A DNA stretch of 64,000 bases. It comes from Squalus acanthias. Its lineage: Eukaryota. Position numbers and translations under genes: made by a program. Below, piece by piece: positions 8,700-48,494 of the stretch. The stretch lies in contig CM059433.1 in assembly GCA_030390025.1 (NCBI GenBank), forward strand, positions 113,584,001-113,648,000. The letters run 5' to 3'. How positions within the stretch are numbered: position 1 is the first letter of the stretch; each line of letters opens with the position of its first letter. Below the pieces are notes generated by a model. It was not told the DNA's origin. It saw nothing but the letters and a program-made list of their open reading frames with translations, and did not search any database.

Positions 8700-9074
8700 C
8701 CCCCAGCTGATCTTTAGTGACCAGGTCAGTTTTCCTTTTGCCATTTGTTCTGAAATAGTGTTCGCTCGGCCGAGCAGCACAAGCAAGGCTGTGCGTCCAA
8801 CAAGCCGGCCTGGGCTGTCGGATCGCCTCCCCCTGGCCTCAAATCGCTTGAAGCCGCCAGCAGTGCTGAGTGAGTGAGTGAGGGGGGGAAGGGGGAGAAC
8901 CCCTATTTTTGGTCTCGGCAGACAGTGCTGTGCTGGGGGCAGCTGGGGAACTCGGTGTGTACACGGGAAAGTAAGAGGGGGAGAAAAAGCTAACCTCCTG
9001 AACACACCTGACTACGCGTGCTAGCTTCCGGCTGATCCAATGGCTGTGGAAAAGCAGACGCCGCCTGTTACCAG
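8700..9074 (+). other. Putative distal first exon of a long LIN28B transcript (5' end uncertain)
   Basis: Lies in a CpG-rich segment and ends in a consensus donor CAG|GTGAGT at 9074/9075, 1.3 kb upstream of the 10406 acceptor. Contains an out-of-frame ATG at 9040. Confidence 0.5.
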
Positions 9075-9473
9075 GTGAGTTCCTGTATACAACATTCTTT
9101 AAATAGCCCTGTGGAAACCCGAGCCCTCAGACTGATCACACCGCGCCGTCTGCCTCACCAATGACTCTTGCAAAATGGGCAACAGAACTGAACCGTGGGT
9201 TCAAAATGATCATCCTGCAGCTATCTTATAATAAGCAGCTCTGCTCTTCTGAACAGTGGACGCTTTTTAAACGTTGAGACCTTTATATGTGATCGTTAGA
9301 GGCAAATCTATCTCTTTTTTTTGTTCATGTATTCGACTTCTGACCAGGAAAAATTACATCTGAAAAATATATTTTTTTTTAAACCTACAAAATGTTCGAT
9401 TCTCCTCATGTACTAGCAGCATAATCTAATGAATAAAATTCAGCAAATCGACCATTTTGAGCAAAATGTGTTT

Positions 9474-9717
9474 ACGCATTTCAGTGGAAGCTAGATAAGT
9501 ACATGCGGGAGAAAGGAATTGAAGGTTGTCGAAAGGGTGAGCTGAGGTAAGGCGGGGGGAGGAGGCTCGTGTGGAGCATAAACACCGGCACAGACCTGTT
9601 GGGCCGAATGGCCTGTTTCTGTGCTGTAAATGCTCTGTAAACGTGTGGAGCATAAACACCGGCACAGACCTGTTGGGCCGAATGGCCTGTTTCTGTGCTG
9701 TAAATGCTCTGTAAACG
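9474..9717 (+). mobile_element. CR1 LINE 3' fragment with a tandemly duplicated 74-bp tail
   Basis: Similar to the CR1 3' end at 20905-21067. The unit 9568-9641 is repeated exactly from 9642. Confidence 0.85.
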
Positions 9718-10405
9718 CCACTTTAACGCACACAAAGCCGTGCACATGCAAGTTTAAGTTAAAATGTGTTTGGTATGTATGAGACATACTGGAGTCGTTC
9801 AATGGGACCAGCAGCATAATCATTGCTTTTAATGCAAAAACTGAGCTCTAGGACGTTATTGCACAGAACAATCGGCTCAAGTCGAGGAGTGAGTACTGGA
9901 ACGCAGGGAGTTCTTGTGTTACACTCTGCTGGTAAAATATAATCCATTATTAATAGCCTGAAAGAATATACACCTCGGTTTTGCAGAAGGGAAACAAATC
10001 CGTATGTCTTTCTCTCAAAAATGTGGCTGGAATGTTTGCTACACGATAGTGTAACGCTGGAAGCGGCCGATCGATAAACACAAACTCCAGCATTAGAACT
10101 CACCACAGAGTGAACATTGTAAAGCTCCTGGCTGTCCTAGAGATTGGAACCGTGCTTGTGAATGCTCCTGTGAGAAGCTTGAATTGCACTCAGCCGATTT
10201 ATATTTGGCACAGTTTAGTCCTTTTGTCTGTCTAGTGAGAAAGGTAATCGGAACATTCAGAAATCTTTTGGGATGCAATGAGACGACAGGATTCCGTCTG
10301 GGGAAGCAATGGCCACATTTTTCGTCTAACTATAAAAGGTTGTGAACTGTGTGCAAACATTTACTGTCCTTTCATGCCAAACTGAGCAGACGTGTTAATT
10401 TCCAG

Positions 10406-10457
10406 GTCTCAGAGAAGAGGATGAGCTCATTCAAGATGGTTTCCTGTCCAGACTCAG
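10406..10457 (+). CDS. LIN28B: Putative distal alternative LIN28B exon (52 nt; ATG at 10421; MSSFKMVSCPDS|G, phase 1)
   Basis: tttccag| acceptor and CAG|gttggt donor. Reads VSEKR-MSSFKMVSCPDS-G, in frame with exon 2. Resembles the recalled human upstream LIN28B exon VLQKR-MRSFNQVSSAP-G. Confidence 0.7.
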
Positions 10458-13400
10458 GTTGGTCGTTCTCTTTAAAAAAAAATGTTTGTAATATATATAT
10501 ATAGACACATGCTTGTGTGCCACTGAAGCACGATGTGATCTGCATTTCTTAATTCTATAGTTTTATAAAGCAGATGATCTAACTGTACGGCGGTCAATTT
10601 TCTGACCGTCCAATGCATTCATTCATGGCATGTCCTAAAAGTACATGATGTCCTGAAATGCAGTTAGATAATACCTGATTTAATAAATGGCGCTGAGGCA
10701 TACACAAAGGATTGGCCCACCAAAAATATATTGTAATTTGGCTATAATAATTCGCTGTTTAGTCGGTGCTTCTTCAGGCTAAGCTTCATTTTCAGAAGTA
10801 GTAAACGTCTTGATGATTGTACCTAAAAGCTTAAAGTACCTTTTCAGGATATAACGACATTGTGGGCAACGTGGAATCAGTTGTTGCTGACTGCATAAAA
10901 CTGAAATTTATTTTCTCAAACGACATCACTTGCAAAATAATGTCGTTTGGGACACTTTTGGGAGGGTAGGGGAGGTTTTTTCGAGGGGGAGAATTCAGCC
11001 CTGAAGCACAGTATAAAACTTCAGCGAATATCACATACTTGTTAGTGCGAGAAATGTAACATTAACCAACCAATTTTGTGTGCAGTCGGTGAATTCCCGT
11101 GACTTCTTCGCGGACTGGTTGTGATTTATTTTAAAGCTATATGTTAGGTACAGTACTGTAACAAAAGGGGGGCTGTCACTGAGAAGCAGTTTCGAATGAA
11201 GTGAAGATGTTGGATCAGCCGCTCTGTGCGAGATACTCGACTAAACTCACCCGCTATAGGCATGACATGCTTAATAATTGTTTTAAAGAAACATTTCGGC
11301 AAGAAAGACTGGAAGAAAAAGGGAAGCCCATTTAGGAGACAGCTTGTGGGAACAGATAGGTGGCACAAGTTGGTGTCATCAGACTGCGCCGTGTCCGCAA
11401 CCAAACAATACGGTTACGCTCTAGTTGCTGGTTCCATCCTTGTATCCGGTAACTCAAAATTCAGTGTTGGAAAACAACACTTTGCATAGTTCGCCTAATT
11501 GATAACTCACAGAAACCTGCCAATTACACAGGCCGCTTCTGTCCCGCGGTAGCCAGAGTTGGAGAAAGGTTCTTCTCAAACTCACTTTATAATGGATCTA
11601 GTGGCGAGTTATTAGGACCAAAGTTACCCTGTCACTTTTGTTTCCGTTTGTAAACTGGAACCGGGGAGAAGCTGGTGTCCTTTTCAGTGTTCTGATGGGA
11701 TTGGTGGTGATTATTTTAAGGTTCAGGTAAACTGACTGGCCTCTTTATCCAACTCCGTGTGTGTGTGTAAGAAATCGAGCGGAAAGTGGCAAACAAGCAG
11801 AAATGTTAAAACTGGAACGGTGTGGTGGAAGTGACACCCGATATAGAGCTCGCCTTGGTTTCTGACACGCATTACCCGACCGTTCACAACGGAAGGCTAA
11901 GGCACTTACTGTGTGGAGTGGAGTTGCTGGATAGGTTGTGTGTGGAGCCAGCAGCGCTCGGTTCGGACATCCCCGACACACACAAGCGGTCTAAATCCAT
12001 GGGTCGGTCTGTCAGTGAGGCCAACGCCGTCCAAACTCTTATTTACATGGGAGTGGGTGGCATTTTATAATCGGAATTACACTTTTAGTTACTACGGTCC
12101 ACGCCCTCCCCCCGACTTGCCGCATGAAGACAAATGGGCTTTCCCCCACACCCGTGCCCTCTCTAGTCTCGTTATCTGTCTTGTAGTTACAACCGCACTG
12201 TTAATATTCTCAGCACGCCAGCATTTCGGCTTACTAAGTCATGAGGAACACACAGGCAACGTGTGTGTGTGTATAGAGTATCTAAAGGTGGTCCTTACTT
12301 GTCGGTTGGTATGCGGTTGTCTTGCTCCGGGCTGGTCGTGGTCACTCGGGAGTCCATTGTGTTGACTCGATTCCAGCAGCATTCACTCGCTCGTTCGTTC
12401 TCTCTCACTGACTCAGTCACTCCCTGCTCCAGCTCCAACACCAACCCCAAGCATCGCAAAACACTGACATCACCACCTGCCAGAGAGGGATTTCCTCGAG
12501 GCGCGTCATCCGACCAACACAGCCCTCTTAAAGAAGCAGGACCCGTCCCACCTCACTTTAAACGGCGACGGGGACACGCTTTGAATAAGGATGGTTGGTT
12601 CATGCAAGTTTTGATTTTTGAGGGTGAGGGCAAGCAGCGTTCTCAGATAATCCCACCCTCTTGTTAGTGACCTTTTTGTTTTGGACTAAACCGAATCTCA
12701 ACAAATCAACAACGAAGTGGTTCTCTGTCTCTCCTTGCAACTCCTGCAAAGTATTTTAAGATTACTTTAAGAAGAAAGGTGGGAAAGTACCTCCCCGTTT
12801 GAAGATTGTTTTTGGTTTCATAACGGTGGAAGTGGTGGGGGTCAGATGTCGTTAGAAGCAACAGACCATTCCTTCTCGAAGTTCTGTGGTGTTAGTAAAT
12901 TTGTTCATTTTTTTTAAATGAGGAAAATAAAACAGTTACCCCTAAATCAAGCCAAGAAGGTCACCAGTTTAAGCTCCATTCCTGAGTGACATTTGACTTT
13001 TTCTCCTCTTAAGATAAATTGCCAACCAGGCTCCATGATTTAGGGAACCCCCAGAAATGAATATCCCAGATGGGCATGAAAGCAATGTACAAATCCACAG
13101 ATTGCCAGACCTGAACCCTAACCATGACTAATGTTCACACTCAGGTTTGCCCCAGATGGTGAGGTGTTGATCTTGCTTTTGCTATTGAACATTACACCAA
13201 ATAATTCAGAGATGCCTACATGATCAAAGGGAGGGAAATTGTCTGGCATTCAACCTTTAGTTGCATTTCAGCCTGTAGTGTATAGGCTGACTACAGAACA
13301 ACATTCATTTTCACAGTCACCCAGATCAATGCGCAACTTCCAGGAGAATGCAAATAAAAAGGATAATTTGAAGAGCGAAGTCTTCAGTTGATGATGGAGC

Positions 13401-30649: not shown

Positions 30650-31095
30650 TATATAAATATGTAAAGTCATAACAAGAGGGTGCAAATTTAAGATGATAAA
30701 GAATTAAAGGGGAAGTTAGAAAATATTTATTTTCAGAGGTAGGTAAAATATGTAATTCTCTGCCATGATCCATTACTGTAACAAAGTCCATAAGTTATTT
30801 TAAAAGGGAATTGGATAGTTACTTGACAAAGAGGAATATTAAAGTAACACAAAAGCAAAATACTGTGGATGCTGGAAGTCTGAAATAAAAACAGAAAATC
30901 TTGGGAATACTCAGCAGGTCAGACAGCATCTGTGGAGAGAGAAACAGAGTTAACGGTTCAGCTCCATTACCTTTCGTCAGAACTGATATTAAAGTGTATG
31001 GGGAGCAAGCAGGAGATTGAGATTAGGTTAGGTGGCTCATGTGGAGAAAAACACCAGTATTATTCGATGGGCCAAATGGCTTGGTTTAAAATATG
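30650..31095 (+). mobile_element. Old CR1 3' fragment interrupted by a family C repeat (about 30850-30985)
   Basis: The CR1 3' sequence stops at atattaaagt and resumes at atattaaagt (apparent target duplication) on either side of the insert. Confidence 0.65.
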
Positions 31096-31589
31096 TAAAC
31101 CTATCGGAACTGAATCTTCCAGCTGCTGCTCGCTGTTTTGCAACCTTTGTAAAGCGCAATTGAAATCGTAATTTAATTCCTCGGATGCCTGGCATCGTTC
31201 CTTGACTATGAGGAGGGGCAAGCAACCCACTCCCAGTCCTGTCTCACTGTGCCTTGGAAGATGTAACCAATTTCTCAAAGGGTTGCAGGAACAACCATTT
31301 TTTTATTTTTTACGTTGATTTTTCTCACTGCCTTTGTGGAAATCCTTTCTTTTTGTGTGTATTTTACATTAAATGGCAAAGGTCAGGAAATCGCGGGCAC
31401 GCAGCCGCGTCCTACCACTCCATGCTTCAGTGTGTCGGTGCGCCAAGGTATATTAAGTCCAGCACCCATGTACTTGATAAATAGCTGCAATAAACTGCAA
31501 ACTTTGAAGACTAGAGTTAAAAATACTTCCAGCTTAGTTCTCTTGATGCCCTGTGATTAAATGCGCTGCATATTGTGCTCCAAAGCCCA

Positions 31590-31880
31590 ACAGCCCAAGA
31601 AATCCCCAAGCTTGTCTCTGGTCTGTGCTGAGTTAGCGCATCATCAAGGCAATAGTGTAGAAGTGAAATGGGCTTTAGTGGCTCTGGATTAGGGAAAGAG
31701 GAAATCAGTTAGAGTTCGTGCTCCTCCTAATTGCTGTCCAAGTGGAAACCTCCTCCCCCATCCCAACGTGTGTACTGCCTGCTACAGTTAAATACCACAT
31801 TGACCAGGCTAACGTGTAAACGGTGCATATTAGGCACGATGCCAGGGGACTGTTGATGCGTGTGAGGAGAGGGATGAGCA
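31590..31880 (+). mobile_element. SINE family B, degenerate
   Basis: ggtctgtgctgagttagc and aggga..ggaaatcag motifs. Confidence 0.5.
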
Positions 31881-33149
31881 AATAACAAATTTGGGACAGA
31901 AAATCTATACCTTGTTGGGATGTCCTATTGTGCACAGTACACACGAGAACTCGAATTACAGCTTCGATTGCTTGGCCACCAGAATTCAAACGTGCAAATA
32001 TTGAGGTAAATCACTGACTACTGGTGGAAAATGTTAAGCTTAAACCACTGCTCCCGGCTTTTTAATCGGCCAATATTGGCCAGACGGTCTTGTCTCTTTC
32101 AGGTAACAAATGGTTTTCCGTTTATCAGACCTCCACTAGCCTACTTCTTTCTGAACCAAAGAACGCGAGTGTGACACCCACGAAATGCCAGTCTTTGAGA
32201 GGCGTGCCTAGCTGCCCCGCTCACAAGATTCCAGCTTCCTCTCCCTAATCCTCCCTCTCTCTTTTTTAAAGGTTTAACTGCTGGATGGTGTCGGTTTTGC
32301 TAATGTTTTCTTCTTCAGATCTCTGTCTGTGAATATCCTTTGCGTCATTTCCTGATATCGGAATAAGTGACACAAACTGTTTTTTTTTAAAAAAAACGAA
32401 AATTCTTATGTTCCACGTATGTTCAACCATTTCAAAATTAAAAAAATAATATATGCATAACTGTTCGCTTCTGGAAACATGCGAATAAATGTCCAATGTG
32501 TGCGGTTCTGAAGAAAGGCAAAATGACAAAATGCTTTATTGTCCCCAAACCCTGGAGTTAATTGTAACTTCTGACACACACACTTATGCTTCGTTAAACA
32601 CAAATAAAAAGTAACCATCACAGTAAAAGAGACTGTTCTTGTTATCCGCAGCTATAACTAAGGCGGAGTAATCCGCCCCTTTCTCCTTTTATCTCTGCAG
32701 TTAAACATAAACATATAAGAGATTGCAGTACACGTCCTAATTCGCCCTCGGTGGATTTCATAACGATCACCTGGTTTCATGGATAATTATGGTTCCTAGT
32801 TGCTCATTCACAAACATTTTTGATATACATCTTATTACTTCACAACGAATGAGTTTAATGTGAAACTAGCTTTCCAAGCCTCCTAAATTTTCTTTAATGA
32901 TTCATACCAATCGCTGCCTTTTCTCATTGGTAAGTACATTAATATCAGTTGTATATGTACAAAAAGGGCCAAAAAGTACGGGACCCCCATCTATACCCTC
33001 TCCACTACCGCCACTGTGCTGACCACATAAAGTCATAGAAGAGACAGAAATTTCTACAATTTAACATTGGCAAGACCAAGCTCAACTCCTGCCAAAAATT
33101 CTACACTGGGGCTTCCAATCCCAGTCCTCTCCAGCTGCTTGCTTAGACA

Positions 33150-34335
33150 GAATCCTATGGTCCGAGACTTTGCTGCCCAATTTAATACTAAATTGAGCTT
33201 CAAACTTCTATTCTTTCACCATAGCTGCCTATTTCCACCTCTACCATTTTACCCACCTCTGTCCTGATCTCATCCCCCACCATCACTTAAACCCTCATCC
33301 ATACCTTCATCATCTCCAACATTCTTCACATTCTCTCGAGTTCATTCGTACATAAACTCCTACTCGTCCAAAATACTAACACACTCACACTTTTTATTAA
33401 TCACAGAATGGGGGCAATGCTTGCATTTATTGCCCATTCCTAGTTGCCCTGAGAAGGTGATGATGGACCTTCTTGAATCGTTTGGATTATGGTGGTGTTA
33501 GGTAGGGAATTCATGGAAATTGACCCAGCAACGATGAAGGAGCAGTGATTATATATCCAAGGCAGGATGGTGAGTAATTTAGAGGCAATAGTGTTCTATA
33601 ACATTTCTGTTCTTGTTCTTCCCGGAAGTTGCAACAATGGGGGAGATGCTGTTGAAGCAACTTTGGTGAGTTTCTATAGTCTACCCTGTAGCCACAATTC
33701 GATGGTGGTGGAGGGAGTGGATATATTGAGTCCAGTGGTTTGAGCACAGATCAATCAGAGTGTTGGGTCCTGGATGGTGCCAAGCAGCTTGTGTATTGTT
33801 GCAGCTGTACATACCAAGGTGAGTGGTGAGTGCTCCATCACACTCCTTAAGCCTTGTCGATTATGGAAAGGTTCTGAGGGGGTTAGGATGTGATCCAGGC
33901 ATTAGAGTTCTCAGCCTCTGTCCTGCTCTTGTAGCCAAAGTGTTGCAATGGCTGGCCGAGTTAAGCTTCAGGTCGGTGCTGATGCCTTATATATTGATAG
34001 TGGGGGACTCAGCAATGGTGGTGCTATTGAAGGTTGGTGAAGCAGGTTGGGCTTCTCCTTATTAGGTAAGCGGGTCTTAGAATGCAATACAGCCTTATCC
34101 TTGCTGCCTTCCAGTGGCACCCCATCTCCCAACACATTCGATTCAAAATCGTTCCTACATGTACAAACTCTTCCTGCCCATATAATAATGTTGCTCTCCA
34201 CTCTTCCATCGCTGACCTGGGCCTCTTCCCCTCACATTCAGTGGTCAAGCCTATATTCTGGAACTCTCTCCTTTAAGTTTCTACACCTGGGTACCTCTTG
34301 CCCCAATTTCAAAAGCCTCCTCAAAACCTTTGGTC
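33150..34335. mobile_element. Old L2 fragments (+) flanking an old minus-strand copy (about 33395-34080) of the 15061-16620 LINE family
   Basis: aaaccctcatccataccttc (L2), and gcatttattgcccattcctagttgccctgagaagg matching 15105-15140. Confidence 0.65.
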
Positions 34336-36721
34336 GCCTTTTAACTCTCATGCTGGGTGTTTTTTATAATGTCTTGGCGTATTAAAATCTGTGTTAAAAG
34401 CGAATGGAAGTTGAACTGCATTACTGATATGCAAGAAGAAAAAGATGCCTATTGCAGGTGATAATGAGATGTTCCAACATTTCACAGAGTACAAATGTAG
34501 ACAAGGCACGAATTCTGTATGCATGTGAAAAAAAGTGTGGATCAAACAATTAACTGACGAGAAAAAAAATCGCTAACGGGGGCTATAGAATGAGACAGTA
34601 AAAGTCGGCAGTAAATGTATTTATTTTAATCAAAATATAAAGTAATTTCCCCTCTAAGCGTGGAATAGTGTATTATTTCTAATATTTTGATTTGAAAACA
34701 GAATTTTGTATAAGTCATAAACTGAAAGTGATAATTGTGGGAAAATTGAAATACTGAGGGGGCTTACGATAGATAACAAGGAAGAGGCGGCAGTGTTAAT
34801 TACAGGCATTAGGAAATGCGGCAGGTCGAGTTGCCAGCTCACAAAATTACGGAAGGATTACAGGGACACGATTACAAAGTTAATTCTACAGTTTAGAGCC
34901 GTGATAAACTCGGATCACTTTCCAGACCGAACTAATCGCCAATCCGTGTTTTAAAGGCGTCTAGTTGCTTGCAGCTCCGGCTGTGAATGGAACTGTTGGG
35001 AGTTTCCTAGTGCCCGCCCACAGTCAATGCTTTTCACTATAGGTTGACTTGCTATATCCGGCGCGGACGGACATCTACTCTTCATACAGTTAGCCGCCAA
35101 CTCAAATAATTGTACTTTTACCTCCAGTGTAGCGGTTGGATGTTAAATTGTCTTAATTAAAATTCGCGAAATTTACCTGCTCGAACCGAAGATAATAAAA
35201 TGCACTTGGAACCTATAACATGTGGCAGTTCGTTATAACAAGATGTGAAATCCGTTGTTCTTATAATTGCAAATAGTAATTAAAATTGTTACCCCGTGGT
35301 GGTAATTGGGTGTTGTAGCCGTATTTTATCAAATAAGTGTTAGCGACATGAAATCAATATTTAAAAACCGACGGGCAATTATTACATTTGAAAACTTTCA
35401 TGGACAGACTCTTATTTTGGGAGCGTCATTCATAGAGAGCCAGAAAGTGAGCACGCCGATTAAGCCGGGTGTGTTGATTTAATAAATGTAATAAAGTAGG
35501 GGCGGGGCCCCATCCTTTGCGGAGTTGAGACTAGGCGAAAGCAGCAAAACCGCGTGTTGACGAGTAACGCCGCACTGCCCGTTTTCCAAGAGGCACTTCC
35601 AGGTTTTTTTTTGTTTACCCCCCTCCCTCTCAATCAACCAGCCTATCCAGATAACTTGAGTTGTTCGCCTCTGGACAGATGTTGCACTGGGCGTAATTTG
35701 TAAAACTCACGAGAACGTCAGTTTGGAGGGGATATTGCGGTTTCTTAAAACGATACTTATCTATTCTCGGTGCAAAGGAAGTTCCTGACACATGGGTTTA
35801 TGTTCAATTATTTCCCAAGGGAACCTGAGCACAGGCCGAAAGGTCGGGCTCCTCCCTCTCTTGGGCATTCCTTTGAATAGATATTGTGTGATATTGTCAT
35901 CGAAAGTCTAATAAGAGAAGGAAACCAGCAAGTTAACATAATCATGTGACCACCAACTCCCCAAGTCCATTCCATATGTCGGTCTCTTTCTGTCCCATTC
36001 TTCCATTTAGGCGCTGCTCGGTTTGTGTCGTGTACCTTTTGATTTGCTTTTTTTTCCAGAATGGCGTGTTATTCAGTTAACGTGATGACTTCAGGTGCCC
36101 CGCCTTAGCCTGCAGGGGAAGGACAAGCCCCCGGCATTGCGAACCTAACGTCTTAGAACTCCTGTAAACTCAATTAAGATGCGTGAGATACTAATTAAAA
36201 GCCACCCAACCGCCTTATCGAGCGCCTAATCTTACAATGTTAGTAATTTACCCTAACCTAATTTAAATGTCCGTGCTCTCTGGACACGTTCAGTTAACTA
36301 AACCCAATTCGCATACACGTTTCTCTCTCCACGGATGTTGCCTGGCCTGCTGAGTTTTTCCAGCGTTTTCTGTTGTTATTTCGCATACACTGGTTCTGTT
36401 CTTTGACCAAGTTCCCCAGCGTCTTCTCCAGTGCAGGCTACAATCAAATGGCAATTGTTCAGCACAACTGTACGTGTTGATGTAGTGTGAGCCACGAACA
36501 TTTCAGATCCAATTCGGTTGAAACAAATTTCAGATCGTGTAAGCAGCAAAATATAAAGAGCGCACCAAATGATCAAGTTGAGGTTGATTGCGATTGGTTA
36601 TGGAAAATCCGACGCCTAATGTATGTTGTGAGTAAATAGGTAGCAGGATGACGACGAGAGCAGGAAATGTACAAAAGTCATCCAGGGTAGACCTGCTATT
36701 GGATTAATAAAATGCAGCGAC

Positions 36722-36825
36722 GGGAATCTCCTCGTGGCGTCTCCCGCTCCGCCGCCGTAACTTCGTCGGATAGCCCAAACGGGATTGCCGCCGTAGTTAT
36801 GGCGGCGAAGCCCCAGGAAATTCCC
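36722..36825. repeat. GC-rich palindromic element of about 105 bp
   Basis: Outer gggaatctcct / aggaaattccc and inner 36750-36769 / 36788-36807 (17/20) inverted pairs. Confidence 0.75.
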
Positions 36826-37425
36826 CAAGTTACTGCTCAGGAGATCGTTTAAAAAAAAAACATAATTAATCTTTTATCTGGAAAATGAGTTGTTTGAGGG
36901 ACAAATGCTGAGATCCAGAATCGAATTTTCTATTTTCAATCCAAATCTAATTGATTTCAACAAATTCCAACTTTTTCCTCACTGACCATTTTCTTTTTGA
37001 TATCCACGCGCTTCCTCCCTCCCTTCCCCCCAGTTTGGACATTGACTTGCGGCTGGCCTGTGCCTTTGGGCTTCAGCTATACTGCAGCTACCCTCTCCGG
37101 CCCATTTCCGAAGTGCGATGCGCGGCCGGAAGACCGGGGTTATACTGCTGGTTACTAATCTGCCCAGATGGCAGGTACAAAGGAGCAAGAATGCTTCCAC
37201 AGGGGCCCGAGATCCTCTCCCTGGGACATTAATTGCTCAGAAAGCGCTGCCGGAGCTTGGATCTTCTGGTCATATTCTAAAGATTCCACGCACCTTTTTT
37301 TTCCCTCGAAGTTTCCACCAGTTCCTGCACCAAAATGTCAGTATTACAGCTTCTGTTACACGACGAGGTTATTTGTTGGGAAATACATCGGAGTTTTTGG
37401 TGTAAGGGACCATGTAACGGAATAC

Positions 37426-37447
37426 ATGGAAACTATTAAGTATGAAG
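37426..37447 (+). CDS. Candidate alternative LIN28B 5' exon (METIKYE|G, phase 1)
   Basis: ATG GAA ACT ATT AAG TAT GAA G|gtaagt: a consensus donor, in phase with exon 2, in a CpG-rich domain. No homology support recalled. Confidence 0.3.
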
Positions 37448-39095
37448 GTAAGTATAGGTGTGAAAACCATATTGAAGGCCATGTATTTATATTGGGTATT
37501 TTGAGTACAGTTGTGTAAGTGCGCTGCACATATACCGTGTGTTGACTGGTGTCTGAGACGCTGTAAATGAACACGGGTGAACAGTGACCACAGTACACAC
37601 GACTTCCCGTCGTGCTGAAACGAGGGACACTGCCGCTGCTCTGACACTAGCCGCCTTTGCTCAGCCCTCTGCTCACTGCTGCCGAGCCCCTCCCAGTTAG
37701 CCGTGACAGGCCGTTCACTGGGCCATTTTATTCATAATGGGAGCACGTCTGAAACGGCGCTCACCTCACCAGGGGCACGGAGGCTGGGTTGTAATAGAGT
37801 TAGGGGTGTGTTGTGGACGGTATTTTTGTGTAAGTCGGTTGAACAAGAAATCGTAAGATGTTTCTTGGCTAAATTCTGTGCAACTAGGTGTGACATAACG
37901 GACACGTTTTCGAGAGGTTACGTCCCTGATCTTAAAGATCTTTACAGATGTTTTGTGGCCCAGGGAACCGAGATCAAAATCAGAAACGGCGAGATTTAAA
38001 GGGACCGAAGCGCCAACGGTATAGTAGGATTAAACCCCAAGGCATTAAGTCAAACAGATGTGTTAATTTATATCAAATATATAAATAATTAACCACCGCC
38101 CGACATTTAAGAATGGCTGATTCCTGATCTTAACGGGATCCACGCTGTATGTCAAATAAAGTTTTATTTGTTTTTTCCCCCCTCTGTTGGTCTTTTTCAA
38201 TAAAACAAAATACACTTTGTGAAGTGATTATTCCCCCCAAACATCGAATCATCCAACAATCATCGGACGGTCGAACAGCCTGTAACAAACGCCCGGCCCC
38301 AATGAAACTCAATCCCAATCGACGACGTTTTATTTAAATTCGACCGAATAATTTCCGTTTCGATAGAACGAAATATGTTGCGTTGAACCACATTTTGGAA
38401 CTTTACTGTCTGGCCGGGTCCTCGTGACACTTGATTTGCCACTTAAGACGAAAAAAATGGAATTGCGGAGCGGGATAGTCACATGTCCGATCGCTCTAGA
38501 CTGGAACTGTGTTTGAAAACTTGCAAATATGTGCTCGCCTCGCTCCCAGCACTGCAAACACAAACTGGAAAGTCTGCTGGACTTGAGTCGAACTGCTGTA
38601 AACACCTACATAATCAGGCAAGGTTGATCAGGTCGATTTGTCACCCCCCCCCCCCCCCCCCCAACCACCATTTAAAAATAAACGCTGCCATCACTTTTCA
38701 CTTGAGAAAAGGGCTCACATCTTGTTAAATCCGTTCCAATGACGATTCAAAATTTGTTTTACAGAGAAACGCTTCGATTTGTTATCAGATTACAGATTCA
38801 ATATTTTGGGGTGGTTCCTGGAACACTTCCCGGTCGATATGTCTGAAGCACACACTTAACGTTTAATCCGTCACCAGCCATCATCTATGGGGAAGTCCAT
38901 TGGTAGCTTTTATTTAAGATTAGTCATTTCGAATGAAGAGGTGCTGCTGATCTGGCAGATGTAAATTTTACTTAGAAAAGGTTTCTTTAAAAAAAGGGAC
39001 ACCCACACCCAAAGCCTTATCATCGGTCTCCTGGTAAAATCCTAAGTATGTGGCTAATACCACCTTAAATAGTGAAACTTCTGAACATCACTGTA

Positions 39096-39130
<35 letters not shown>

Positions 39131-40639
39131 GTGGTATTTTCTATAGAGTCCGCAAATAAAGATGGCGACAAGCCTGTAACTGGCGGACGGACGGACCATG
39201 GTGCCAGTTCTCCGAATGACTGTTAATTTGTTGATTTTAAAATGGGGGAAAAAATAACAAATTTACTGGCTATTGCGGCGAAAATGAATATTATCTGCCC
39301 ACGCACAGCAGTCGGGAGCTGTGCACGAATATGGTGCTGCCAGGTCTGGTGTCGGATTGCAATCAATGACCAGTGTCCACTGTATATACTGCGGAATCTC
39401 TCCATTTCCACTGGCAGGCCCACGGTTCAATCAGGGACGGCGAGTATCGGTGGGCCCCACCAAACACATTTATGAATGAGTTCCACGCATCACGCCAGGA
39501 CCTGGGCGTGTTCACACTTTGAAAATGAGTGTCAACTGATATATCTATTACTTTCAACATTCACGAATATCGCCGTGTTGGGAGGGGGGGGGGGGGTTAA
39601 TGTGGTTTGCTCAAGATTCCTGATCAATCTAGTTCCCTTTACAAGTATCGATGCGGCTCACTTTAATGGAGCCGGCGCTGTAGCTAGCGAGTAAGGAGCA
39701 GTGTGGTGCGCAGGTCCGAGTGAATCCCCCCCCACCCACCCCCAACAATCAACCAGCTTGAAAGAATTTTCCGGGGTAAGAGTCACCGGCGCTAACAAAG
39801 GCCTTTGCTGTTTTAAAGAGCACCTCGTCCCTTTGTCCTGTCCCCTCCCAGGCAAAGGCAGCCCTATGCACTGGGGAGTGGAAGGTAAGCACCATTCGCA
39901 CAGGAGATCGCACAGGAAGCTGCTGCAAGGGCTGATACCCTTTATCTCACGTGCAGCAGGCGTGCACAGCGGAGTGAACAGGGGGGAAGGGAGTGGGGGT
40001 GGGGGGCGGTGCGAGAATCAATAGTCCGCCAAGCCTCCTGATGACTTTCCCGGGGGTGGTGGGAATAAAACAAAACGTTGACACAATACTCTGCTTCTCA
40101 CCGTGTGATGCATTCAGCTGGTCTTCAGAGGAAACCCGTTTTAAAGGACTCGTTCCGGCTTAATTAGCAACACTAATGAAGTATCCGAATCACTTGTTAA
40201 CTCACATCCCCTGGCGAGTCAATGCCGCACATTGAGAATTGTTGAAAATTCGATTTTAGTGGATTAGTTTTATCTGACAAATCTCTCACACGTGTATTTT
40301 AATATAAAAAAAATCTTGTTATGTAAATACCAAACTGTATATTTTATAAATATAAATAACAGGTAAATATTTCCATCTATAATTTTAAATATAATTCTTT
40401 TGAACATTCATTTCAACCGAAAATGTAGGAATCCCAACGAATTGTGCATAAGCAAGGCTATAAAATGGGTGCTTTAGCACTATGGTAATGTTGTGGATTA
40501 AATCTACATATTCTTCCCAATTTCTGAAAATATCCGTCATGGACGCTGACCTATCATAAAATGATGGAAGTGCTATGAAAGCTAATCGTTATTAAACGTA
40601 TCAGGTGTTGAGTTTTCTTTTATACACATTATATTTGGG

Positions 40640-41600
40640 TGTCATTCTTGGCTCAGTGAGAGCTGAGTCAGAAGGTCGTCGGTTCAAGCCCCACTCCAAC
40701 AACAACAACAACTTGTATTTATATGGCGCCTTAACGTAGTAAAACGTCCCAAGGCGCTGCATATGAGTATTTTAAGACAAAAAAATTGACACCAATCCAC
40801 ATAAGGATAAATTAGAAACAACAGCAGAAAACGCTGGAAAAACTCAGCAGGCCAGGCAACATCGGTGGAGAGAGAAACAGAGTTAACGTTTCAGGTCGAA
40901 ACCCTTCGTCAGAACTGAGAAAAGAGCAGGAAATGAAACAGATAAAAATGCAAGGGGGAGGCTGGGGGGAGGAATAACTATGGTAAGTAGAGACATTAAG
41001 AGATGCTCATTTAGAGCAGGTTTGGTCAAAGAGGTAGGTTTTAAGGAGCGTCTTAAAGGAGGAAAGAGAGGTAGCGAGGCGGAGAGGTTTAGGCAGGGAG
41101 TTCCGGAGCTTAGGGCCTAGGCAACAGAAGGCACGGCCACCAAAGGTTGAATGATTATAATCAGGGATCCTCAAGAGGGCAGAATTAGAGGAGCGCAGAT
41201 ATCTGAGGGGGTTTGTGGGGCTGAAGGAGATTACAGAGATAGGAAGGGGCGAGACATGGGCTCCAGAGACTTGAGCACAGAATCCAGGCTGACACTCCAG
41301 CGCAGTACTGAGGGAGTGCTGCACTGTCCCAGGTGCCTTCATTTGGATGAAACGTTAAACCAAGGCCCTATCTACCTTCTCAGGTGGCACTGTTTTGAAG
41401 AGGAGCAGCAGAGTTGCCCAAGTGTCCTGGGCAATATTTATCCCTCAACCAACATCACTAAAACAGATTATCTGGTCATTATCTCATTGCTGTTTGTGTG
41501 AACTTGATGTGTGCGTTTCCTACATCACAACACCTCAAAAGTGCTCCCCTTGTCTGTAAAGCGCTTTGGGGGCATCCTAGGTCCTGAAAGACGCTATATA
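40640..41600 (+). mobile_element. Deu-domain SINE split by a minus-strand L2 3' fragment (about 40699-41260) that itself contains a family C repeat
   Basis: The SINE head ends ccactcca and resumes ctccagagacttgagcac (CTCCA duplicated). L2 tail (caa)n-cttgtatttatat, peptide GGRAFCCLGPKLRNSLP..SFKTLLKTYLF. Confidence 0.85.
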
Positions 41601-44460
41601 AATGCAAGTTATTTCTTTATATATCTTGAATCGCACAAAGCCCATTGCTGAAACAGAAAGCCGATGTATAAAATTAAACTCCGAGTAGCTTTCTTCAGCG
41701 CGACGAAACCTAAATCTGATCTGGCGAATTGCTTTTGGGGTTTAATTATACCCACAATACTGAATTCGATAGAAAAAAAAATCAGCGTTTGCCCAAGAGA
41801 CCTTTATCAATAGGACCTCAGAAAAGCGATGCCTCCTTGCTGGCTGGTCAAGGCAAACTTGCAGTGTAAGGTCGAGGTGCTAGAATGTAAAGTTTTTGGT
41901 GGGTGGGGGGACTTTAGCAAGAATTTAAACTTTATCTTCAAGTCGGATCTTTCAGGAAGAAACACTAATGCGTGAGAAATGTGTAATAAAGACTTAAAAA
42001 AGTTATTTTTGAGCAAACACAGAAATGCTTACTGGGGAACGCGGCTGCAGCCGGTTAAATTCCCTAAGCTGTTTTTTTTTGTATATTGTTAAAGGATTGC
42101 GATTTTTTTTTTTTAAAAAAGCTTTCTTTATAAAGAACAACTTGGCTGATTCTTTCTGAATGGGCTAAAGCTGGGATGTGGGCTTCCCAGCTGACCAAAC
42201 CTATACCTTTGCATGACTTGAAAGGCTGATGTCCTCGCACAGGAAATGAATGACTCGATAACATCTGACACCCAGTGACCACTCTGCTGACCCGATCTTA
42301 ATTCTCCTAATACGAGGAAAAGCCTGAAACAGCCGCTTCTGCCGGCCGGAGTCGGAGGATCAAATATTAAAGGAGAAACTGGGATATATCAGTTGTATTT
42401 GTGATAGTTGACTTTATCGATTTGTAATTTGGGGGGGGGGGGGGGGTTCATTTATGAGTTCGGGAAGCATTGCGCACTCAGTAAAACTGAAAGCTTTCAA
42501 CCCCCCCCCCCCCCTTAAAGACTGCCCATTTGCTCTGTTAACGGGGACTTTAAGAATCTCAAGAATTTAGAAGTATCCTTAACTTGTCTGAGGCGCGCGT
42601 CACGAATAAAATACCAACTTCGACCCCATATACTCATTGGGCGTTTGCAAATAAACTGATGCCTTTCGATTGTTTTTCATGTCTTTGTTTGAAATGAGTG
42701 CACTTACATCTTTTGCAGAAGGCAGGCACGTATTCTTTTGGAAACGGTGGGCATGTGGGCTTTTCTTGGTTGCATGTGGCTTCGTGGCGAAAGTAATCGC
42801 AGTAAAATGAAAGGTTATTTGTAAAACGTGTAGGGGACCGCAGCAGGGTTTTTTTAAAAAAGATTTGATGGTTTTAAATTCAATCGATGGCCTGGTACAA
42901 AGCGGTACTGGAAACACTGGAGAGAGAGAGAGAAAAAAGAGACGAGAGTGATCACAGAGCCAACAAACGCAACCATTTTAGGTCGGTTTAGGGATTGGAC
43001 TCAACTCACGCTCTGTTGAAATAACCTATAGGAAATTTACGGTTGAAGACTTCAAAGGAATTTCAGGACTGAGAGCTTCTACTTTAGTTAGTAGGTTGTT
43101 CTCTCTCTCTCTTCCCTCCTCCAACCCGTTAAAAAAAATCTGTCCCACACCGCCTGCGATGCTTGACCAGCACACTTTAGGGGACAAAAGTGCATGTTGT
43201 GCGAAAGCAAATGTTTGCGACTTTTAAGACGCTGATGTTAGAACAGCAAACAAGCCCTTTAAGTGCAAACTGCCCCTTACAATTGGTCAGACTAGTTGGC
43301 GCCGACACGTCGGGCCAGTTTTTTTTTGGAGTAAAACGCATGGTAATCGACAATGCATGGCAAGCAATGTTAAATCGGCCACTTTCCTCCCCCCCCCCTC
43401 CTTCCTTCCTAAAACATCAAGTTTTACCATCACGCCTCTCCCCTTTTCAGAGAGCCTTCCACATTTCTCCTCCAAACGCCAAATGTAAAGGTATTTCAAA
43501 ATAACAACAGGAGCAATGAAGCAAATGCTTGACCTTTGAACCCTTTTGGAGGGGCATTTCCTTTTAACAAAAAGTGAGGGAAAGTCGCATGTGGGAGAAG
43601 ACTAATCATCTTTAGTGTTGATGAGATATATATATATATATAGATATGTTTATGCTTTCAAAACTGGGCCGTCCCCAGGTACATGTGGCCTTAAAAGCCC
43701 AAAATGCTTGAAAAAGGCACCGCGTTATCTGTTGTTGCACCCGTCACTGGAATCCTCATTCTAAAATAAAGGCATCAAGTATGGCTTGTGTGATTGATGA
43801 ACCGTTTTATAGTTTAAACGGAGATCATTTCAAAAATGACATCTTACATTCAAATGGTATCACCTTGCTTTAAGGGGGAGACACAAAACTGCTGCTCCCC
43901 GATCGTGTTTATTACTCAGAAGGAAAAGTATCCAGTATCTTTTGTGAGATCTTTGATTATTTTGTGCGGAGATCTTCTCTGAATGTTACTAAATAAAAAT
44001 GCGTAGGCGACATGCCCGGGGTTCCTTTTGCACAATTTTAAAATCTGTCCTTCCTATATTTAACCTGCAATTTTTTATATATATATATCAGAATATTACA
44101 TTCACGAAACTCTTCGCTGCATTAACAATATTTAGATCCGTTTCACCAAATGCATAGGTTTATTGCTAGCGAGTGTGAACTGTCGAGATTTCTGAATAAA
44201 TTCACACACAGCATTGTCAGTTTATATATGATCGTGTTTATCATAATAGTTGATCTGTGGTTAGTTTTTATATATATATATATATATAGGTTGCATAGCT
44301 TGACGTTCCCCACAGAAAGCAAAACAACGGGGGAAGAGACCCTGTAGCTTTAAGTATATCGAGATGACCGGTTCATCAAAAATGTCGGACAAATTAGCTG
44401 GGTAAAAAATCTGGAGGTTTTTTTTGGGGGAATCATCGATTAATGCGGTGACAGGTTAGA

Positions 44461-44746
44461 GGAGAGGCCGATTGGCTCTGTTCTGCCTCTCTAAAGACTG
44501 CGATGTGTAATTAGCGGCAAGAAAGCATGTAATTGACGAGTCACGTGTGTGCCAGGGCCAGGAAGGGAAAGGAGGAGGGGGGGGGGGGGAACTAACGAGG
44601 GAAAGCACGTTAGACCATGCGAGCATTGGCGATTGCTAAATTTTTGATCCCTGAATCCTATGACGCTAGATTGATGCAGAAGATTACCCATTCCAAGGAA
44701 AAAGTTCTCATCGGGCGGGTTTGGACACAGGGGCCTGTGTGACAAC
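44461..44746 (+). promoter_or_regulatory. LIN28B: LIN28B proximal promoter and 5' UTR
   Basis: Inverted CCAAT (ATTGG 44471-44475) and E-box CACGTG (44542-44547). Blocks such as TGTAATTGAC..GTCACGTGTG, GAAAGCAC.TTAGACCATGCGAGC and TAGATTGATGCAGAAGAT match the human LIN28B 5' UTR as I recall it. Confidence 0.8.
44617..44742 (+). CDS. 41-aa upstream ORF in the LIN28B 5' UTR
   Basis: accATG...GTG TGA is open for 42 codons: MRALAIAKFLIPESYDARLMQKITHSKEKVLIGRVWTQGPV*. The stop lies 4 nt before the LIN28B ATG. Translation is not demonstrated. Confidence 0.55.
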   Translation: MRALAIAKFLIPESYDARLMQKITHSKEKVLIGRVWTQGPV

Positions 44747-44756
44747 ATGGCCGAAG
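44747..44756 (+). CDS. LIN28B: LIN28B canonical exon 1, coding part (M-A-E-G, phase 1)
   Basis: acaacATGGCCGAAG|gttact has a good Kozak context (A at -3, G at +4). It matches the vertebrate LIN28B N-terminus MAEG and joins exon 2 in frame (G+GA = Gly). Confidence 0.93.
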
Positions 44757-45223
44757 GTTACTTTTTTTCTCTCTCTCTTTCTCTCTTGTTTAAAAAAAAA
44801 TCCTTTTTTTTTTGCATACTTTTAAGAGATCGCAGAGGGGGCTTTTCCAAACCCATTGTTGTAGATCTCCCAAAATGTATGTACCCGCCCCCCATTTATT
44901 CACAACTTCAAAGGCTTTCTGAGGGCTATTGTGTGGACTGTTTGTGTCCGATTAAGCACAGTTTTCTCTCTCTCGCTCTCTCTCTCTCTCTCAGTTTGTG
45001 TGTGGAAGGCAACACTGTACACCTGCCCCTTAAGTTTGATCGGAGAACGCACGCTGGACGCTACAGTAGTTTTCTTCAGTATAATACGAAGCTTGTTCTA
45101 GTGGAGCAATACAAAACAAAAAAGCTCTCGCGATCGACGCTGTTGAATGTTGATCACGATTAGCGAAAAGAGCGGAGGGAGAAAAAAAAAGCCGGGCTTG
45201 TGTGACAGTGGTTTCTGCGGGAG

Positions 45224-45254
45224 ATGGGCTCCGTTTTAAACCAGCCGTATTCCA
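45224..45254 (+). CDS. LIN28A-like alternative first exon (or relic) in LIN28B intron 1: MGSVLNQPYS, phase 1
   Basis: gagATGGGCTCCGTTTTAAACCAGCCGTATTCCA|gttacg is 31 nt followed by GT, the same length and phase as the LIN28A first coding exon (MGSVSNQQFA|G). The donor is weak. Confidence 0.55.
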
Positions 45255-45526
45255 GTTACGTACGGTTTGCTAATCGTAATTTGCTGCCTCAAACATGGAG
45301 TAAAGGAGGATTGCACATGGATCAGAATCGATATTACAATGGCTTTGCCATATAGGCTGCAGCCAATGTCCATGTCGATGTGTGAAGTGCTTTCTTTCAG
45401 AAGCTTATTTTTAAATGTACTTTGTTAATTATTTCCACCCCCCCCCCACTCCTCTTTTCCGTCAGATAAATTGAAACCTTGTTTTTCTTCCCCCTCTCTC
45501 TCCCCTCTGTGTTTGCAATTGTCCAG

Positions 45527-45708
45527 GAGGGACGGGTAAAGGTGGTGGAGACGAAAAAGGAAAATTGACAGAGAAAGAAGACTCTCAAATCCAGCAGGGA
45601 GCAGGCCACTGTAAATGGTTCAACGTTAGAATGGGATTCGGGTTTATCTCCATGACCTCTCGGGAAGGCACCCCCTTGGAGACGCCAGTCGATGTTTTCG
45701 TACACCAA
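45527..45708 (+). CDS. LIN28B: LIN28B exon 2, N-terminal half of the cold-shock domain
   Basis: Long polypyrimidine tract plus gtccag| acceptor, and CAA|gtaagt donor. Translates (G)GTGKGGGDEKGKLTEKEDSQIQQGAGHCKWFNVRMGFGFISMTSREGTPLETPVDVFVHQ. The GHCKWFNVRMGFGFISM and VDVFVHQ motifs are LIN28B-type (LIN28A has GICKW..GFLSM). Confidence 0.98.
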
Positions 45709-46524
45709 GTAAGTTTGCATAATTCCGCCAGTTTCATTCATCAAAAAATGTTTTGCTTTTGGAGGGGGGGAGGGGTTGTTTGTAGAGAAACAGTTAAAGC
45801 TCAATTGTAAAAAAAAACCCCGCGCAATTCGTGTAAATGTTCTGGATTGTACGGTCGGAGCTGGAGCCGGCTGCCATCCCATACACGTTTCATGTGTGCT
45901 GTGCTTCCCCCCCCCCCCCCCCTTTCGCCAATCTGGAGTGGTGTAACTCTGGAAACCAGATAGCGAGAGGTTGTAGTTAACCGTTTCATGATTGCGTGGC
46001 TGAATACTTTTTTTTTTGCATAAAATGCTTTTTACTGTGCGGCGAATGCATGCATTGCCGATAAAAAGCGATGGAGAAAGTCTGATGCATGAACGAAGTT
46101 TAAAGGAAAACGCACACACATGGCAATTGGCGTTCTCTGCCGGTGCAAAAATATCAAAATAACGATCTGCTTGTCAAGGTCAGAGGTGAAACCCGGAAAT
46201 GCTAGACTCAAGACTGTTGCATGTTTTGTACAGGGAAATATTGAGGGGCGTATATTGTAATATACAGTCCCCTTTCGAAAGACTGAAAGCCTTAAAACGC
46301 CACCGTGATGTTTATTCAACGGCGTTTTCTTGTAAAACTTGGGGAGTGCAAGAGAAATGTTCCCTTTTCTCCCGCTTTATTGTATGACGATTCGCCTCGG
46401 AAGATTTCTGGAGGAGCAATTAGTTTATTAAAGGAAACTTGGATTGTTGATAATTGCAGCACCTTCAGATGCACTGTGCGAGATGTCTGCCCACTGTGCG
46501 ATCAATGATTGGCTTCTTACGATG

Positions 46525-46687
46525 CATACACAGAATCAAATCCACACAGAATGATATACACAGTGATATACACAGAATGATTGATATATACACAGAATCA
46601 TATACACAGAATGATTGGTATATACACAGAATCATACACACACACATCATTAAATACATAGAATTATACACACAGAATAATATACAC
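46525..46687. repeat. Degenerate minisatellite with core ATACACAGAAT
   Basis: About ten imperfect units of 11-20 bp. Confidence 0.85.
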
Positions 46688-48494
46688 TTTGCAGTCATTT
46701 GCCTCCCATAATTGGCGGTAAACAGATCTGAATATGTGAAATATGATTTTGTGGGGAGGCGAGGGGAATCAGACTCTGACTGGTTTGTGGCCACAAGCTG
46801 CACAATATGCCCTTGTGTTGTGCCTCGTCTTCCAGCGGTCCATTCCCATGCTTGTTTTCTAAACTTGTGTCTGTATTTAAAAGTTCTGATATTTTTTCCC
46901 CTCCCTCTTTTCTGTCTCTCTCTAAACCTTCCTTGGGTCGTTAAGTAAGGGGTTTACGACCTCGTAAGATTGCTTTATAGACGAATACAGCGCCAGGACA
47001 GGAGAGAAAAGCGTTTTCGGGTGAGTTGGTAGCACCCTCGTGCTACCGTGGCAGGGAGTTTTCAGGATTGTTGCCACCGGACAGACTCGGGCTACAATCT
47101 CCATTCAAGTCTCACCCCCTCGGTCAACGTTTCTTCGCGAATCTAATCGCAACGCGTAAAATTAGCATTTTAAAGAAAAACACAACCTTTTACCTGGTTG
47201 TGGCTCAAGCACAGCGTGTGTTTTGTGTTTACTGGAATGGTTCGACCCACGTTTGAATGAAGCGCTCGCGGTTTATAAGACAGCAAATCGCTTTTGCACG
47301 AACGTATTTGTTTATTGGCAATGATTTGAATCATTAATATTAAATATTGAAGTAACTGAGGTTTCCACCCCGTTATTACCCCGTTCTAGCTATGCTGCCC
47401 CGTGTATGTTAAGCTTTTTTGTTCCCCTCGCCATGTGTTCCAATGGGCTTTAGTTGGAATTTGTTGCATCCGTTTTTAGCAAATTAAATAAATTACATTT
47501 ATCGAGAGTGTTCTGCGAATTATATACTTAAATATATTCTCATCCGCTTGTGCTCTGAGATTGTTAACATTGTTAGCTAACACAATGACATACACATTTC
47601 CACAAGTGCATTAAGAGCATCTACTTGTTCAAGTAATTCTGTGCTGGTAAAAAAAAACTTGCCTCTTGTCAGATTTGTGGTAATTGTCATTACTGTAAGG
47701 CTTATGTTGAGCTGTCATTGTATGTTCTTTGACATGTATTCTACATCACAGTGATGAAAAGAGCAGTTTTTTTAAAGCATAGTTGCATTTTCGAATTGTG
47801 TACTGTTTAAATGCATCTTAATAGCTTCAGAGGTAAAATCACACGAGGGACAATTAAAGGAAAATGTAATCTTATTTTAGAAAAGGTGAATACTTCAATG
47901 TTTCTTCATGAGAATTAAATAATTCCAAGTTTTCAAACACCCTTTATGCAACCATCTTGCACAAGACTTCACTGAATCTATGACCAACAAACCACCTGTA
48001 GTTAGACTTCATGTTCAATATCTTAAAATTGATGGAGTAAAAGAAACCATGCATTATTTATGTGAATTTCTCAGTCAGTTGCAGCATAACCAGATCAAGG
48101 GAGTGAGGAATTGAGTGTTGAATTAATAGTTACCCACTATACAAAACTATATTTTAATATACAAATTGTTCTATGAGTTGGGAGTAATTAAAAAAAATCT
48201 TCTATTATAAGATGTAAACAGCCAGAAAAAAAATCTCAGCCGCATTTATTATGGTGTAAGAGTGCACCTGCTGTTGAATATCATTTGCATTTCTTTGACA
48301 CGTCCCTAATCGTTGTGGTCTCAATCAAACACCAATTAGTTTCAAGTATTCATGTAAACTTGCTTTGGTTATATTCATTCTCAATTAAGTTGTGCGGATG
48401 AAATAGATTTTGATTTTGAAGTTCTAGCTTTTATACACTTGCCCTGCTCTTGCTCACGGTTTGATGTTCAAACTTGTTTTATTTCTATGAAATA

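Follow-up and report, generated by a model that had tools for sequence, protein, structure and literature searches.

A LIN28A-type coding first exon in intron 1 of shark LIN28B that likely predates the duplication of the two genes

Intron 1 of LIN28B in Squalus acanthias contains a short segment (45224..45254, plus strand; coding part of 31 nt, phase 1) that we consider, with good confidence, to be an alternative coding first exon of this gene, homologous to exon 1 of LIN28A, likely used, and likely older than the LIN28A/LIN28B duplication. All positions refer to the window, that is, the whole 64,000-nt stretch of DNA that was analysed, unless another sequence is named. The assignment of this MGSV-type (LIN28A-type) exon draws on its sequence, on its 22/31 match to exon 1 of the LIN28A gene in the same genome, on a splice junction in a contig of a relative (X17), and on orthologous shark models (P0135, P0139, P0142, P0147, and P0154).

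The host gene was identified as LIN28B from its exon 2, the top matches of which were shark LIN28B proteins. Three of its coding exons on G000:C9 matched P0121 at 88-97%, with exons 3 and 4 at 96-97%, and the gene had the cold-shock domain and two CCHC knuckles (Pfam was run on orthologs) and lay nearer to LIN28B than to LIN28A. The common exon 2, in which the cold-shock domain begins, is located at 45527..45708 (plus strand) and is followed by exons 3 and 4 farther down G000:C9. A single guessed-RNA contig over this exon (X18 record 7; 45527-45708) had the last 30 bases of exon 2 before the first (212 = 182 + 30), as a back-spliced circular exon-2 RNA would assemble. The MAE-type first exon spans 44577..44756 (plus strand) with a coding part of 10 nt in phase 1 (44747-44756), and contigs X17 record 1 and X19 record 8 splice it to exon 2. 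The MGSV exon lies within the 770-nt intron 1; its ATG at 45224 has G at -3 and +4, its donor GT stands at 45255, and a GT..AG intron of 272 nt with a weak donor (45255..45526, plus strand; acceptor AG at 45525-45526) separates it from exon 2. The original prediction had described an ATG in good Kozak context 272 nt before exon 2, in a LIN28B gene that retains both starts; coordinates, context, and frame were all found to be correct, and the MAE (44747-44756) and MGSV (45224-45254) exons are both present in a gene whose LIN28B body is intact.

A third 5′ exon, specific to LIN28B and of the MSSFKMV type, lies 34 kb upstream (coding part 10421..10457, plus strand; 37 nt, phase 1) and occurs in models from sharks to mammals. 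Contig X20, which carries the window's organism label, has this distal exon as a loose end ahead of exon 2, and no homolog of it was found in LIN28A. The three phase-1 5′ exons (distal, MAE, and MGSV) share one exon-2 acceptor. Long CpG-rich stretches, with observed/expected values mostly of 0.5-1.0, surround both LIN28B promoter regions (31000-47000 and 9000-13000).

Compared with the first exon of LIN28A from the same genome, the MGSV exon was identical at 22/31 nt in an ungapped alignment, with equal length, phase, and GT offset, and at 6/10 residues. This was the top score over every position on both strands of the window (runner-up 20), and the similarity was significant against shuffled intron sequence, as 0/5000 dinucleotide shuffles of the 770-nt intron scored 22. 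A degenerate two-exon pattern, circular by design because it was built from the two exons themselves, had only two matches in the 3.7 Gb genome, namely both LIN28 genes, and its reversed control had 0. As far as sequence comparison goes, the proposed homology of the LIN28B exon to LIN28A exon 1 was thereby confirmed. Chance likeness in intron sequence, which the exon length of only 31 nt would favour, is refuted by the shuffle test, the genome-wide pattern, the orthologous models, and the X17 junction, and its probability is negligible.

The 30-nt flanks of the two exons agreed at 6/30 and 11/30 positions, so that the likeness is limited to the coding part. Same-residue codons were identical between A and B in 4/5 cases in the MGSV exon and in 12/24 cases in exon 2, numbers too small to test, and this would agree with a stretch conserved chiefly for a regulatory role at the DNA or RNA level (as an enhancer or promoter-proximal element), its peptide being incidental and the isoform minor. 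According to the accessible part of one study, lamprey has a single Lin28, and the region between exons 1 and 2 is conserved to lamprey and termed a proximal enhancer (PMC12465051); this lamprey-conserved element may be the MGSV exon region. Conservation that begins at the ATG and ends at the donor, with frame and phase kept and conservative residue changes, points instead to a coding exon, as does MGSV being the commonest LIN28A start (74/165, among the matches listed). We therefore regard a mainly regulatory role as highly improbable and keep to the reading of a coding first exon.

Among the matches listed, 361 proteins were binned, and an MGSV-type start was found in 24/196 B-class proteins and a MAE-type start in 32/165 A-class proteins. 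The sample consisted of cluster representatives and at most 15 listed members per cluster, and 224/585 proteins had been dropped before counting because the anchor motif was absent, the body short, or the score low. RefSeq models with the MGSV start on LIN28B came from five other sharks (Stegostoma, two Chiloscyllium, and two Scyliorhinus species), and non-shark models from bowfin, paddlefish, coelacanth, chimaera, snake, parrots, sandgrouse, horse, cetaceans, hippo, cattle, a bat, and elephants. Other sharks, chimaera, and coelacanth, in which the original prediction proposed to look for the exon, thus all have MGSV-start LIN28B models, those of coelacanth (P0013) and chimaera (P0005) with odd junctions; the description of the exon as hidden does not hold, as it already stands in RefSeq models of five other sharks and in models of many bony vertebrates. 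These database models are automated, and the RNA backing of each is not visible in the records. MAE-start LIN28A models were found in basking shark, cloudy catshark, and bamboo shark, and further in sturgeon, eel, salmonids, herrings, other ray-fins, a frog, and two turtles.

All four combinations of body (A or B) and start (MAE or MGSV) were therefore represented among database models, and in a tree of the bodies with N-termini removed, A and B separated with support of 100/98. Where one species had models with different starts (5 pairs for B and 5 for A), the bodies were identical. Since each paralog has models with both exon types on either side of the shark/bony-fish split, both exons would have been present before that divergence, and the most economical account is that they were inherited from the unduplicated gene, as this needs no transfer event. 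The claim that the pre-duplication LIN28 had both starts is well supported by these combinations, pairs, and tree. The B-type exons also share letters of their own, as expected of vertical descent within B, with L at position 5 in 22/24; the peptide bins were picked by motif, which makes the first four columns circular.

Both starts in both genes could also have arisen if each paralog originally had one exon and the young duplicates exchanged them by gene conversion or copying in stem jawed vertebrates, and the unalike flanks of the two exons and the lack of a reliable pre-duplication outgroup sequence would be compatible with such an exchange. It would, however, require two reciprocal events before the shark/bony-fish split, against none for inheritance, and we judge it very unlikely. 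A further weak hint against it comes from the partial hagfish model P0410, whose opening stretch matches 6/9 residues of the mammalian B-type peptide and which is possibly homology-built. In the outgroup tree, the hagfish row was unplaced on a very long branch and LIN28B was unresolved, so we make no root claim; no lamprey LIN28 sequence was identified among the retrieved proteins. P0416 and P0484 were rejected as outgroups because they are pigeon proteins. They represent a very divergent, LIN28A-like 161-aa protein whose start is still MGSV-like, and they sit beside bird LIN28A on a long branch, as a retrocopy or fast paralog might. With inheritance as the preferred reading, the age of the shared start pair would be about 450 million years.

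Evidence for splicing of the MGSV exon came from one X17 contig of a relative (organism F; RNA status guessed), which joins 45254 to 45527 and skips 272 nt bounded by GT..AG, with 30 letters in exon 2, one below the 31-letter bridging rule. X17 also contains unspliced pieces of the region, and in X19, a second run of the same sample, the MGSV junction was absent and the exon uncovered; the X17 junction may stem from a retrocopy in organism F. The RNA side comprised four guessed-RNA runs, and X18, X19, and X20, having no cover of the MGSV exon, are no evidence either way. The 45254-to-45527 junction, for which the original prediction proposed to look, was thus present in one contig of a relative; in X20, with the window's organism label, cover is limited to the distal exon and exon 2. 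Among four DNA or unlabelled runs, X5 and X6 cover the region without joints, and X9 and X13 are repeat matches. Taken together, the relative's junction and the five-shark models make use of the exon in sharks likely, and we infer that it is used in this species.

The 5′ untranslated part of the MGSV exon extends over approximately 44990..45223 (plus strand), an extent taken from the relative's contig. X17 record 3 covers 45118-45254, together with a 28-letter piece that ends at 45045 and a loose end similar to ~44988-45015; as assembled contigs cannot show a transcript start, the 5′ limit of ~44990 is a minimum reach in the relative. A pyrimidine tract and AG at ~44994 form a possible acceptor, through which the X17 contig reads. 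An out-of-frame upstream ORF of 30 codons with a weak start context (45147..45239, plus strand) overlaps the ATG of the MGSV exon, and in the catshark model P0154 the first four residues are as in this ORF, yet in frame with the MGSV exon.

This overlapping upstream ATG, the donor, which matches the U1 consensus at 4/9 positions (the three remaining donors match it at 6 to 8), and a junction seen only outside this species would all suit an ancestral exon that has become a silent relic here. The junction residue, however, is S, R, or T in 22/24 B-type peptides, which corresponds to A as the last exon base, and G or A in 73/74 A-type peptides, which corresponds to G. An A before the donor in 22/24 LIN28B models, from sharks to mammals, indicates that the weak donor is probably an old LIN28B trait rather than a sign of decay, as judged from these deduced bases. 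The ATG, Kozak context, frame, and GT are also all intact, the junction exists in a relative, and the models come from five sharks in two orders. A DNA contig of a second organism (X6) had no listed difference over the exon and donor, its intron being also ~98% alike. We therefore consider a silent relic quite unlikely; of the two possibilities first raised for the exon, use gained support from the X17 junction in a relative, and decay is opposed by the conserved A before the donor.

The only other LIN28 gene of this genome is located on G000:C16 and is closest to shark LIN28A; its first exon (ATG 64523609, minus strand) has 31 coding nt in phase 1 and lies ~200 nt before exon 2. A reciprocal MAE exon, which the original prediction had suggested for LIN28A, was found in models of three other sharks but not in the 139 kb upstream of this gene (one 500-N gap at -8.2 kb), where long simple repeats and the gap leave some room for a missed exon. 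The conserved Lin28b promoter words had no match upstream of this LIN28A, and the MAE 5′ leader, used as a query against the whole genome, matched only itself. The MAE exon thus seems to be gone from this genome's LIN28A. A distal LIN28A start at -13.3 kb (ATG 64536915, G000:C16, minus strand), used in bamboo-shark and skate models, was not accepted as homologous to the distal exon of LIN28B, since its 3′ side falls within a dispersed repeat; this exon is likely repeat-derived and common to sharks and skates. At exon 2 of LIN28A there is a tandem CAGCAG acceptor (G000:C16, ~64523380), and the extra residue is present in some shark models and absent from others (P0298 and P0307, P0303 and P0308).

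The conserved promoter of Lin28b lies at 44445..44550 (plus strand), with MEIS at 44449, CCAAT at 44471, HOX at 44508 and 44530, and an E-box at 44542. As far as the accessible part of the published comparison goes, this set of MEIS, CCAAT, two HOX, and E-box words is conserved in human, chimaera, lancelet, and velvet worm (PMC10735318, Fig. S29), and in the window the words stand in the published order at 44449-44547, directly ahead of the MAE exon, in a comparison made by eye with a figure whose columns are partly scrambled. Because the promoter of the MAE exon is conserved as far as lancelet and velvet worm, the MAE start would be the older one. The MGSV exon would have been added downstream of it before the A/B duplication, and both copies would have kept both exons in many lineages, with MGSV preferred by A and MAE by B, and with scattered losses. 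None of the 25 named LIN28B models from primates (4) and rodents (21) had an MGSV start (by eye, among the matches listed); loss of the exon in these groups is only a lead, and its loss or silencing there, if true, would explain why it has gone unseen.

In the proposed mechanism, transcription would begin from a second promoter within the 770-nt intron 1, the 31-nt coding part would be spliced to exon 2, and the product would be LIN28B with an 11-residue MGSV start instead of the 4-residue MAE start. The swap would fall ~25 residues before the cold-shock domain, which Pfam places at 37-106 of P0135, and since the alternative N-terminus lies well ahead of this domain, RNA binding is expected to be unchanged. 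The switch would most likely act through the choice of promoter and 5′ leader, setting the timing, site, and amount of LIN28B production; the N-terminal peptide would be a second, hypothetical layer. Given the overlapping upstream ORF (45147-45239) and the weak donor, the MGSV form would stay minor. Retention of the peptide in both paralogs suggests a further role, and N-terminal acetylation, phosphorylation, or stability are possible roles. An N-myristoylation signal was rejected because its consensus has Gly2 with Ser/Thr at position 6, and position 6 is Asn in 24/24 B-type and 65/74 A-type peptides among the matches listed. A broader reading, which we advance only tentatively, is that the N-terminal difference between human LIN28A and LIN28B reflects reciprocal use of two ancestral first exons, that in most vertebrates LIN28B can be given an A-type N-terminus with its own modification or stability signal, that primates and rodents lost or silenced the exon, and that the human intron-1 "conserved enhancer" represents either what is left of it or a live promoter that has escaped annotation.

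The canonical exon 1 of LIN28A (emu P0231, horn shark P0197, and this genome's own gene on C16) resembles the LIN28B MGSV exon in its 31 coding nt, phase 1, MGSV-x-NQ start, and position 200-270 nt before the cold-shock exon. Unlike it, the LIN28B exon stands behind a MAE exon, has L at position 5 and an aromatic residue or H at position 9, and carries A before a weaker donor. RefSeq and Ensembl already hold LIN28B isoforms with the MGSV exon joined to exon 2 (XP_048386338.1, XP_072355965.1, XP_064412353.1, XP_023506629.1, and XP_036727797.1); these are automated, bear an isoform number only, and leave the LIN28A homology unstated. An alternative-start isoform of human LIN28B is reportedly called LIN28B-TST. 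The accessible part of one paper describes an upstream-start isoform of human LIN28B, 258 aa long, as driven by an Alu start (PMC12247766). It is comparable in that an alternative promoter alters the LIN28B N-terminus; unlike the MGSV form, it appears to match the distal exon at 10421, as its 258-aa length and the mammalian MRSFNQ-type models suggest, and that exon would be far older than the Alu promoter. In Xenopus, the isoforms lin28a1 and lin28a2 differ in their small 5′ coding exons, and both bind pre-mir-363 (PMC4982076, citing Faas et al. 2013). They are alike in these small 5′ coding exons but, in the accessible part of that source, are described for LIN28A only (PMC4982076); frog models P0393 and P0534 suggest that they correspond to the MGSV and MAE pair.

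When ancestral alternative first exons are partitioned between duplicates, the result is subfunctionalisation, of which fish mitfa/mitfb are presumably an example. The LIN28 paralogs likewise favour different ancestral starts, but unlike full subfunctionalisation their partition is incomplete, as many lineages keep both exons in both genes. In the literature searched, from which subscription papers were mostly excluded, we found no account of the LIN28A/LIN28B first-exon homology or of a pre-duplication pair. The sorting of ancestral first exons between duplicates is a known kind of event, and LIN28 is a well-supported new instance of it in a much-studied family.

LIN28A and LIN28B hold a central place in the biology of stem cells, timing, puberty, and cancer, and as a rule a single N-terminus is assumed for each. 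An isoform may accordingly escape start-site morpholinos, exon-1 knockouts, and N-terminal tags, and the predicted second LIN28B promoter is a concrete test target in fish, birds, and livestock. A shared ancient pair of starts alters how the divergence of LIN28A and LIN28B is read, and makes it testable whether paralog-specific expression follows from which ancestral promoter each copy kept.
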